Assembly: GCA_043806395.1 (NCBI GenBank)
Contig: JAZDHC010000039.1
Span: 1 to 42,945, forward strand
Reading direction: 5' to 3'
Origin: Candidatus Desantisbacteria bacterium
GTDB taxonomy: Bacteria; UBA9089; CG2-30-40-21
DNA length: 42,945 nucleotides
Shown: positions 23,956-24,316 of the stretch, piece after piece
Layout: the number at the start of each line of letters is the position of its first letter
Numbering within the stretch: position 1 is the first letter of the stretch
Notes under the pieces: model-generated
What the model saw: only the letters and a program-made list of their open reading frames with translations
Told to the model about the DNA's origin: nothing
Databases searched by the model: none
Position numbers and translations under genes: made by a program

Positions 23956-23966
23956 TATCAGTCTCC

Positions 23967-24280
23967 TCCCAACTCCCAACTCTCAACTCCCAACTCTCAA
24001 CTCTCAACTCTCAACTCTCAACTCTCAACTCCCAACTCCCAACTCCCAACTCCCAACTCCCAACTCCCAACTCCCAACTCTCAACTCCCAACTCTCAACT
24101 CTCAACTCTCAACTCTCAACTCTCAACTCTCAACTCTCAACTCTCAACTCTCAACTCCCAACTCCCAACTCCCAACTCCCAACTCCCAACTCCCAACTCT
24201 CAACTCTCAACTCTCAACTCTCAACTCTCAACTCCCAACTCTCAACTCCCAACTCTCAACTCCCAACTCCCAACTCCCAG
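23967..24280. repeat. Tandem heptanucleotide array (TCYCAAC), 44 full units plus one degenerate unit
   Basis: Counted by hand. Variant order (C=TCCCAAC, T=TCTCAAC): CCTC T5 C7 T C T9 C6 T5 C T C T CC. All units share one orientation and there is no complementary arm. Confidence 0.95.
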
Positions 24281-24287
24281 CTCCCGT

Positions 24288-24316
24288 AGTATATCATCAA
24301 TAAGCAGGGATGTCAA
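24288..24316 (-). promoter_or_regulatory. Sigma-70-type promoter directly upstream of the heptamer array and sppA
   Basis: Minus strand reads TTGACA - 17 nt - TATACT. The predicted start site falls at the first array unit (~24281). Confidence 0.55.

Follow-up and report, generated by a model that had tools for sequence, protein, structure and literature searches.

We propose, as the likely explanation of the observations below, that a hypermutable heptanucleotide simple sequence repeat (SSR) has expanded inside the 5′ leader of the sppA-yip1 genes in one species of Candidatus Desantisbacteria. The array lies on a contig of 42,945 nucleotides (JAZDHC010000039.1, assembly GCA_043806395.1), the whole of which was analysed and is called the window hereafter. 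It makes up nearly the entire sppA 5′ leader, stopping 10 nt short of the sppA ATG where it merges with the Shine-Dalgarno (SD) sequence. It is an unusually long case of a known slippage-prone bacterial repeat and not a new type of switch.

Tandem Repeats Finder (TRF), run on the whole window, delimited an array with a period of 7 nt and 45.7 copies, which shows 95% matches and scores 472 (Table 1). When the 320 bp were parsed unit by unit on the sppA sense (minus) strand, we found 21 copies of GGGAGTT and 23 of GAGAGTT, along with one degenerate GGGAGCT and a partial GGGAG. The first-pass annotation of this DNA had counted 44 units at 23967-24274, which is exact, and the homogeneous blocks of 5, 7, 9, 6 and 5 units that it described are recovered in the run order along the array, G3 A1 G1 A1 G1 A5 G6 A9 G1 A1 G7 A5 G1 A1 G1 (G for GGGAGTT and A for GAGAGTT). 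The two variants are clustered, with 15 runs versus about 23 expected (permutation p = 0.010), and this clustering, together with the differences between two strains presented below, supports the recent slippage that had been suggested. As in other long SSRs, the copies of a unit of 5-11 nt follow each other head to tail, far above chance. The C-rich (+) strand of the array is stop-free in every frame, which gives rise to spurious ORFs at 23854-24303 (149 aa) and 23900-24289 (129 aa).

Table 1. Features of the window discussed in the text, with their positions.
Feature	Position	Strand	Basis
Heptanucleotide array, 45.7 copies	23966..24285	-	TRF and unit parse
G4-capable tract 1, 4 consecutive GGG units, promoter-proximal	24262..24285	-	Regex, ViennaRNA
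G4-capable tract 2, 6 consecutive GGGAGTT units	24153..24194	-	Parse, regex
G4-capable tract 3, 7 consecutive GGGAGTT units	24027..24075	-	Parse, regex
Sigma-70-type sppA promoter: -35 TTGACA 24316-24311, 17-nt spacer, TG 24296-24295, -10 TATACT 24293-24288	24288..24316	-	Promoter scan, conservation
SD sequence GGAGGAG, fused to last partial repeat unit, 7 nt before ATG	23963..23969	-	Sequence
sppA, 314 aa, Peptidase_S49, 36K-type signal peptide peptidase	23011..23955	-	Pfam, E = 1.9e-50
Yip1-domain membrane protein gene, 3 nt after sppA	22402..23007	-	Pfam
Divergent TonB-dependent receptor, outside the repeat system, sharing the intergenic region	24553..26571	+	Pfam Plug and beta-barrel
Peptidase_MA_2/PD40/Omp85 (BamA/TamA-family) outer-membrane protein hosting array 2, 1000 aa	29951..32953	-	Pfam
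Array 2, second TTGGGAG/TTGAGAG array, 20.3 copies, inverted relative to the sppA array	31214..31355	+	TRF, translation
Adjacent AACTGCC-type heptamer array, translated in the same linker as array 2	31376..31401	+	TRF, sequence, translation

On the minus strand, the elements follow each other as TTGACA, a 17-nt spacer ending in TGA, TATACT, AC, the degenerate GGGAGCT, the 44 canonical units and the partial GGGAG, which runs into GAGACTGATA and the ATG. The array begins 2 nt past the -10 hexamer and its other end lies inside the GGAGGAG ribosome-binding site. The TTGACA-17-TATACT promoter (24288-24316, minus strand), the GGAGGAG and the ATG at 23955 had all been correctly recognized beforehand; the promoter-like site matches the consensus at 11/12 positions and has in addition an extended -10 TG (TTGACA-17-TGaTATACT). 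Sites with a match of at least 11/12 occur 10 times in the window versus 1.4 times in shuffles. Since such sites are about 7-fold enriched and mostly located upstream of genes, the organism appears to use consensus-type promoters. No promoter-like site was detected within or past the array at the threshold of the scan. Since, in addition, the promoter is conserved among orthologues, the entire array is most probably transcribed as a sppA leader of about 330 nt, with a putative transcription start at ~24281-24283, within the first repeat unit; the position of the array relative to this conserved consensus promoter fits an SSR between the inferred transcription start and the start codon. The sppA SD has a predicted duplex energy of -11.2 kcal/mol with a generic anti-SD, and orthologues keep GGAGGAGAT or GGAGAT at the equivalent site. 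A scan of the window against Rfam 15 at the gathering score gave a tRNA-Trp at 11909-11981 as its sole match, and no riboswitch or known leader. Homologues of sppA carry the name signal peptide peptidase SppA, and the nearest taxon with a name is Candidatus Desantisbacteria.

Orthologous sppA loci were gathered through exact-protein look-ups and a metagenome scan. In six of them, with SppA identities of 77-91% and including one MAG named Candidatus Desantisbacteria, the block ATTGACAT..CT..TTATT..TG.TATACT is invariant while the flanking DNA diverges on both sides; the promoter block was found to be conserved in L121, L122, L123-L125, L126, L127, L128, L132 and L133. The heptamer array is absent from all six orthologous loci of other species, where the leaders are ~30-110 nt long. 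The sister species (L127, L128, L132, L133; 90-91% protein identity), which has the same divergent receptor gene, carries a leader that reads TATACT-TCGCAAGAGATAAAAATCA-GGAGGAGATCAATA-ATG. Since the promoter block is invariant and the orthologues are devoid of the array, this comparison indicates that the array is a recent expansion within the sppA 5′ leader, specific to one species. The succession of promoter, array leader, ribosome-binding site and sppA described in the first-pass annotation is thus supported, both by the invariance of the block in six loci and by the lack of a promoter inside or after the array.

The sppA-yip1 operon arrangement is kept in all relatives (synteny in L001, L121 and L123-L126), and the divergent layout of sppA and the TonB-dependent receptor gene is also found in the sister species L127 and L122. 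It had been suggested that the array could influence the receptor, through a promoter lying 90 nt beyond. We found the receptor start codon 237 nt past the -35 hexamer and no consensus promoter on the receptor strand. Moreover, the array is downstream of the sppA promoter, and an effect on the receptor is unlikely because changes in array length leave the spacing on the receptor side unaltered. A palindrome, CCTTGCTTTTTTTCAAAAAAAGG, followed by TGTATATTAT, is located upstream of the receptor gene at 24406-24428 and has been kept in L122 and L127, which are sister species; it may serve as a promoter or operator of the receptor gene. In L127 (2700-2940), as well as in L128, L132 and L133, an insertion of ~220 nt immediately precedes the conserved sppA promoter. 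Its boundaries are GCAATTCTCATTATGAA ... CAAAATGAGAATTGC, the terminal inverted repeat of an element that follows rpoC in the window and is described below.

The same unit is found at a second locus of the window. Translated in frame from the minus strand, array 2 gives (PTPNSQL)n and belongs to a hypervariable linker in an Omp85-family protein. The host ORF has 838 homologues, with full lengths of 920-1100 aa, and by homology it is a genuine single gene of a widespread peptidase-MA/PD40/Omp85 family. In the protein alignment, the linker that bears the array lies between '...NIWAV' and 'IAQVTDYFGGAF...' and is short in most relatives; some have other low-complexity insertions there, and array 2 is missing from relatives.

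Both loci are spanned by a second assembly (GCA_043823455.1) of a near-identical strain, L001 being the sppA locus and L131 the array 2 locus; like the window and the other comparison contigs, these come from metagenome assemblies, in which repeat lengths can be wrong. L001 shows 98.0% identity over 4.8 kb and a SppA that is 100% identical. Length variation of the array had been anticipated, and the comparison of related genomes yielded no array in the orthologues and, in the 98%-identical L001, an array of ~32 units, whose pattern differs, including the units beside the ribosome-binding site, on a contig that may be chimeric or collapsed. In L131, which shows 98.7% identity over 7 kb, the length and the flanks of the coding array are identical, and the array has 12 differences (substitutions) in ~140 nt. 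The divergence of array 2 between these two metagenome assemblies is ~8.5% versus 1.3% in the flanks. The length of array 2 would be conserved between the strains because only three-unit changes keep the reading frame. Slippage under selection predicts such a contrast, with a conserved length where the frame matters and a free one where it is of no consequence.

Several peculiarities of the second assembly were also noted. The first part of the L001 array contains 8-nt units (GAGGAGTT, GAAGAGTT), and at positions 1-75 of L001 the array is preceded by the apparent end of another ORF (...GVIDVYRGRT*), not by the promoter. This odd 5′ flank may stem from a contig that became chimeric by way of a third array, or else the array may be the site of a rearrangement. 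An inversion between the two arrays was considered as its origin and rejected, given that the expected junction sequence mismatches. A search for a TonB-dependent receptor protein that is identical or at least 90% identical found no record, so that the promoter-side junction of the L001 strain was not located. The end of L131 (7320-7422) consists of poly-G-rich junk, likely a sequencing or assembly artefact, so that downstream of the Omp85-family gene the two strains can be compared only to a limited extent, and MITE-like elements lie near that end.

These irregularities raise the question of whether the array itself, its length or its junctions could result from the mis-assembly of a dispersed repeat. 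The TTGRGAG unit does occur at two or more loci, the contigs of the related MAG break at or near arrays, the 5′ flank of L001 is unrelated and L131 ends in poly-G junk. However, two independent assemblies place an array of this unit directly on the sppA ribosome-binding site, and both carry array 2 with identical flanks. Furthermore, the sequences brought together at the two junctions in the window lie next to each other in the sister species (the promoter on one side, the SD and ATG on the other), and assemblers tend to collapse tandem repeats, not to expand them. We therefore judge an artefact to be highly improbable.

To place the unit in a wider context, stretches of at least four TTGRGAG units were sought in species-representative genomes, which yielded at least 119 stretches among the matches listed. 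Among these matches, the phyla include Bacteroidota, Verrucomicrobiota, Planctomycetota, Cyanobacteria, Acidobacteriota and Gemmatimonadota, and the arrays have a median of 4 units and a maximum of 19. The unit is also present in 25 viral contigs. Since arrays elsewhere are so short among the matches listed, the sppA array is exceptional in its length. In the 119 listed loci, whose gene calls are crude longest-ORF picks, we found no orientation preference relative to gene starts (3′ of the G-rich strand lie 27 starts versus 20 ends). Where an array in these loci was called as coding, the sense strand is mostly the C-rich one, which is expected because this is the strand without stop codons. 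The suggestion that the array tunes sppA is not supported as a specific adaptation, given this lack of an orientation preference elsewhere, the inverted array of the same unit in a coding gene and the repeats that occupy most spacers of the window.

Among the matches listed from other genomes, 111 of 120 arrays consist of a single variant, and 73 of 120 are pure GAGAG, which is not G4-capable. The mixture of G and A variants is common to the sppA array and to three others in the species, namely array 2, L001 and L131. The presence of this mixture in all four arrays points to a shared descent, or to ectopic exchange between the loci, and not to independent origins. Local slippage alone does not account for the recurrence of the unit at two or more loci, each time as a G/A mixture; given that 111/120 of the listed arrays elsewhere are pure, this recurrence implies ectopic exchange or some way of dispersal.

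Could the two arrays of the window have a function as a pair? They are inverted, 6.9 kb apart and made of the same two variants, and both genes act in envelope protein biogenesis. The (GGGAGUU)n of the sppA leader could pair in trans with the (CUCCCAA)n of the Omp85-family mRNA as an antisense: in the best register 137 of 160 positions pair, with a predicted duplex energy of -264 kcal/mol. Such complementarity is, however, automatic for one repeat present in opposite orientations. Alternatively, recombination between the arrays could invert the 6.9-kb segment, but this event would cut the Omp85-family gene in two and separate sppA from its promoter, and the L001 flank mismatches the post-inversion junction. 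Sister species, besides, do without either array, and we find a function of the pair extremely improbable. A broader proposal is that the heptamer arrays of this lineage, instead of arising passively by slippage, constitute a dispersed and exchangeable module acting at the RNA level, in which the G-rich leader copies and the C-rich mRNA copies would pair in trans or fold into G4s and so couple envelope-biogenesis genes, copy number being a heritable and rapidly tunable setting. This proposal also appears very unlikely to us.

The two TTGRGAG arrays are part of a window rich in tandem repeats, of which 23 of 36 are intergenic though intergenic DNA represents only 12.5% of the window. All period-7 arrays are intergenic save the two in the Omp85-family linker, and the window shows the intergenic bias of units that are not a multiple of 3. 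Indeed, tandem repeats of 7-11 nt occupy most intergenic spacers, including that between rplK and rplA, and many of the arrays end ~2-30 nt from start codons (rplA, rpoC, larC and the ABC substrate-binding protein, pilin-like and radical-SAM genes). The rplK-rplA spacer (10392-10462), within the ribosomal-protein/rpoBC cluster, is filled by TAGACTG x3.4 and ATAGCCT x5.1 arrays, and units of the ACAGCCT type are found at 10427, 12251-12265, 37834-37850 and 37907-37938. Likewise, the 119-nt spacer between the TonB-dependent receptor and ABC substrate-binding genes (26579-26681) is made up entirely of interleaved 7-8-nt repeats (CAATTCAG, CAATTGA, GAATTAC), which stop 9 nt before the start codon of the latter gene.

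Inverted repeats are also present in the window. At 27602-28039, an inverted repeat, (CGCAGAGA)3 ... (TCTCTGCG)3, encloses a PD-(D/E)XK_3 gene (27630-28007) in its loop. A gene-free copy of this repeat lies just after rpoC (284-358), within an outer inverted repeat, GTAATTCTCATT/AATGAGAATTAC. Judging from their sequence, the two look like a MITE-like hairpin element able to carry a small nuclease gene, and similar elements are found at L131 7000-7260. In two other intergenic regions (29868-29883 and 42885-42900), AGGGGGTT x2 motifs occur in a hairpin-like AACCCCCTAACCCCC...GGGGGAATTAGGG, which may be a small dispersed element or a terminator.

A regulatory role through G-quadruplexes (G4s) was considered in view of the composition of the leader, whose sense strand holds 164 G, 91 T, 72 A and 3 C in 330 nt. 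When G4s are left out of the folding, the centroid structure is empty and the minimum-free-energy fold contains only 2-bp G-U/A-U helices. With a regular expression (G3+N1-7 x4), three non-overlapping G3N4 quadruplex motifs were found on the sppA sense strand, at 24262-24285, 24171-24194 and 24052-24075. The two strands of the whole 43-kb window together hold only four motifs of this kind, none of them outside the two heptamer arrays, and the fourth belongs to array 2, where it lies on the strand antisense to the host gene. G4-aware folding with ViennaRNA gave a minimum free energy of -64 kcal/mol versus -42 without G4s and predicted three 3-layer quadruplexes. The G4 potential put forward in the first-pass annotation thus holds for three sense-strand motifs, at the level of motifs and energy model only. 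The array also compares with the GGGAATC heptamers of Xanthomonas and the GGGGAYT heptamers of Nostoc, which form G4s in CD and are transcribed (Rehm et al. 2015; PMC4692102). It shares with them the G-rich tandem G3N4 layout, the several dispersed loci, the variable copy number, the over-representation in non-coding DNA near ORF ends with occasional intragenic copies, and the succession of at least four G3 tracts separated by short loops, here in runs of 4, 6 and 7 GGG units. In contrast, GGGAGTT/GAGAGTT does not conform to the GGGNATC/GGGGAYT unit consensus of that class, and GGGAGTT is mixed about 1:1 with GAGAGTT, which cannot form a G4. Our array has 46 units where the reported maximum is 26, with four preferred, and the host belongs to an uncultured candidate phylum, the G4s here being predicted ones (PMC4692102). 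If the GGGAGTT tracts folded in the non-template DNA, as a G-loop or R-loop, or in the mRNA leader, sppA output would follow the count of runs of at least four GGG. We regard this model as unlikely: 23 of the 44 units cannot contribute to a quadruplex, the G-rich strand of array 2 is antisense to its gene, most of the listed arrays elsewhere are pure GAGAG and their orientation to gene starts is random.

Action at the level of translation is another possibility. The leader, unstructured if G4s are disregarded, contains 22 SD-like GGGAG motifs, each followed by a UUG 7 nt further on, which could act on ribosomes as standby sites or decoys. With a generic anti-SD, from which the host 16S tail may differ, a GGGAG unit has a predicted duplex energy of -8.3 kcal/mol, compared with -11.2 for the genuine SD and a range of -9.5 to -11.5 for genes nearby. 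Alternatively, the heptamers could bind an RNA-binding protein of the S1, Csp or CsrA type, as was proposed for the TAACTGA heptamers that are directly repeated in marine Beggiatoaceae, Cyanobacteria and Bacteroidetes (MacGregor 2015; PMC4679880). The many arrays of the window that end 2-30 nt from start codons follow a pattern like that of those repeats, which are also found directly upstream of start codons, including within ribosomal-protein operons, and at sppA a forward array likewise lies a few nt upstream of that gene's start codon (PMC4679880). Close relatives with the same gene neighbourhood lack the arrays in both systems (with up to 43 copies for TAACTGA), contigs break at arrays and a few arrays are inside ORFs; long intergenic heptamer arrays without counterpart in close relatives are known from Gramella and Aequorivita as well (PMC4679880). 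However, the sppA array is not made of the TAACTGA unit, of which the window holds only AACTGCC/AACTGAC variants at 31376-31401, and, unlike for the TAACTGA repeats, the promoter upstream of the sppA array can be placed by conservation. The units vary from locus to locus (ATAGCCT, TAGACTG, CAATTGA, CCTACAG and others) and share no binding motif, and the orientation of TTGRGAG arrays is inconsistent. A translation-level element consequently seems unlikely to us.

The preferred reading, a slippage-prone SSR expanded within the leader, can be summarized as follows. The array would have expanded by slipped-strand mispairing or unequal exchange within the untranslated leader. Transcription from the conserved promoter would start in the first unit and yield a leader of ~330 nt that is purine-rich, almost C-free and essentially unstructured. 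A change in copy number could then alter neither the promoter spacing nor the reading frame, and would at most grade sppA expression, as a rheostat, or be nearly neutral. Our analysis suggests that copy number may grade sppA expression or that the array may be near-neutral, and a regulatory reading is plausible only as a rheostat, one without specificity for sppA. The RNAs on which Rho loads are rich in C and poor in G. The sppA leader should be a poor Rho substrate because it is nearly C-free, and poor Rho loading may explain the tolerance of such a long untranslated leader.

Among cyanobacteria, the STRR heptamers reportedly described by Mazel et al. in 1990 can be likened to the sppA array. 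Precedents for an SSR in a leader, between promoter and start codon, are the 5′ UTR heptamer (ATCTTTC)n of Haemophilus influenzae hmw1A and hmw2A (PMC12721329, PMC2424069) and, as far as it is cited in PMC4679880, the AGAT repeat in the leader of Moraxella catarrhalis uspA2. In both, as may be the case here, copy number grades expression and there is no frame switching. The hmw mechanism requires that ten repeats pair with a complementary, G-rich arm into a long hairpin, which is cut by RNase III (PMC12721329). No such hairpin was found in the sppA leader, which has 3 C in 330 nt, an empty centroid and no complementary segment; no segment complementary to the repeats is present in the sppA-yip1 mRNA, nor elsewhere in the window outside the arrays. 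The target is also different, a housekeeping envelope protease here versus an adhesin in hmw. According to Mrazek (2007), as cited in PMC4679880, no class of long SSR is commoner in bacteria than the heptamers, whose origin is attributed to polymerase slippage. The sppA array resembles the prokaryotic LSSRs of Mrazek et al. (2007), as that account presents them (PMC4679880), by its unit of 5-11 nt, the dominance of heptamers, the intergenic bias and the sporadic phylogeny. However, LSSR and STRR are descriptive classes without a defined mechanism; the sppA array stands at their long extreme, and its lineage is not described as repeat-rich in what that account relays.

What is new here is a very long heptamer SSR in a candidate phylum, with an internal contrast between a leader and a coding copy. 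Such arrays are also of practical concern, as they break short-read assemblies, create spurious ORFs and may cause chimeric contigs. The locus offers a clean natural comparison, one unit family in one genome being present as a leader copy with a placeable promoter and as an in-frame copy in a coding linker, and this comparison is aided by array-free sister species and by a near-identical strain in which the length of the coding copy is kept and that of the leader copy is not. It makes testable the effect of a 330-nt, nearly C-free and G4-capable leader on transcription, Rho termination and translation. More broadly, the heptamer-repeat-rich genome architecture is extended to a candidate phylum known only from metagenomes.
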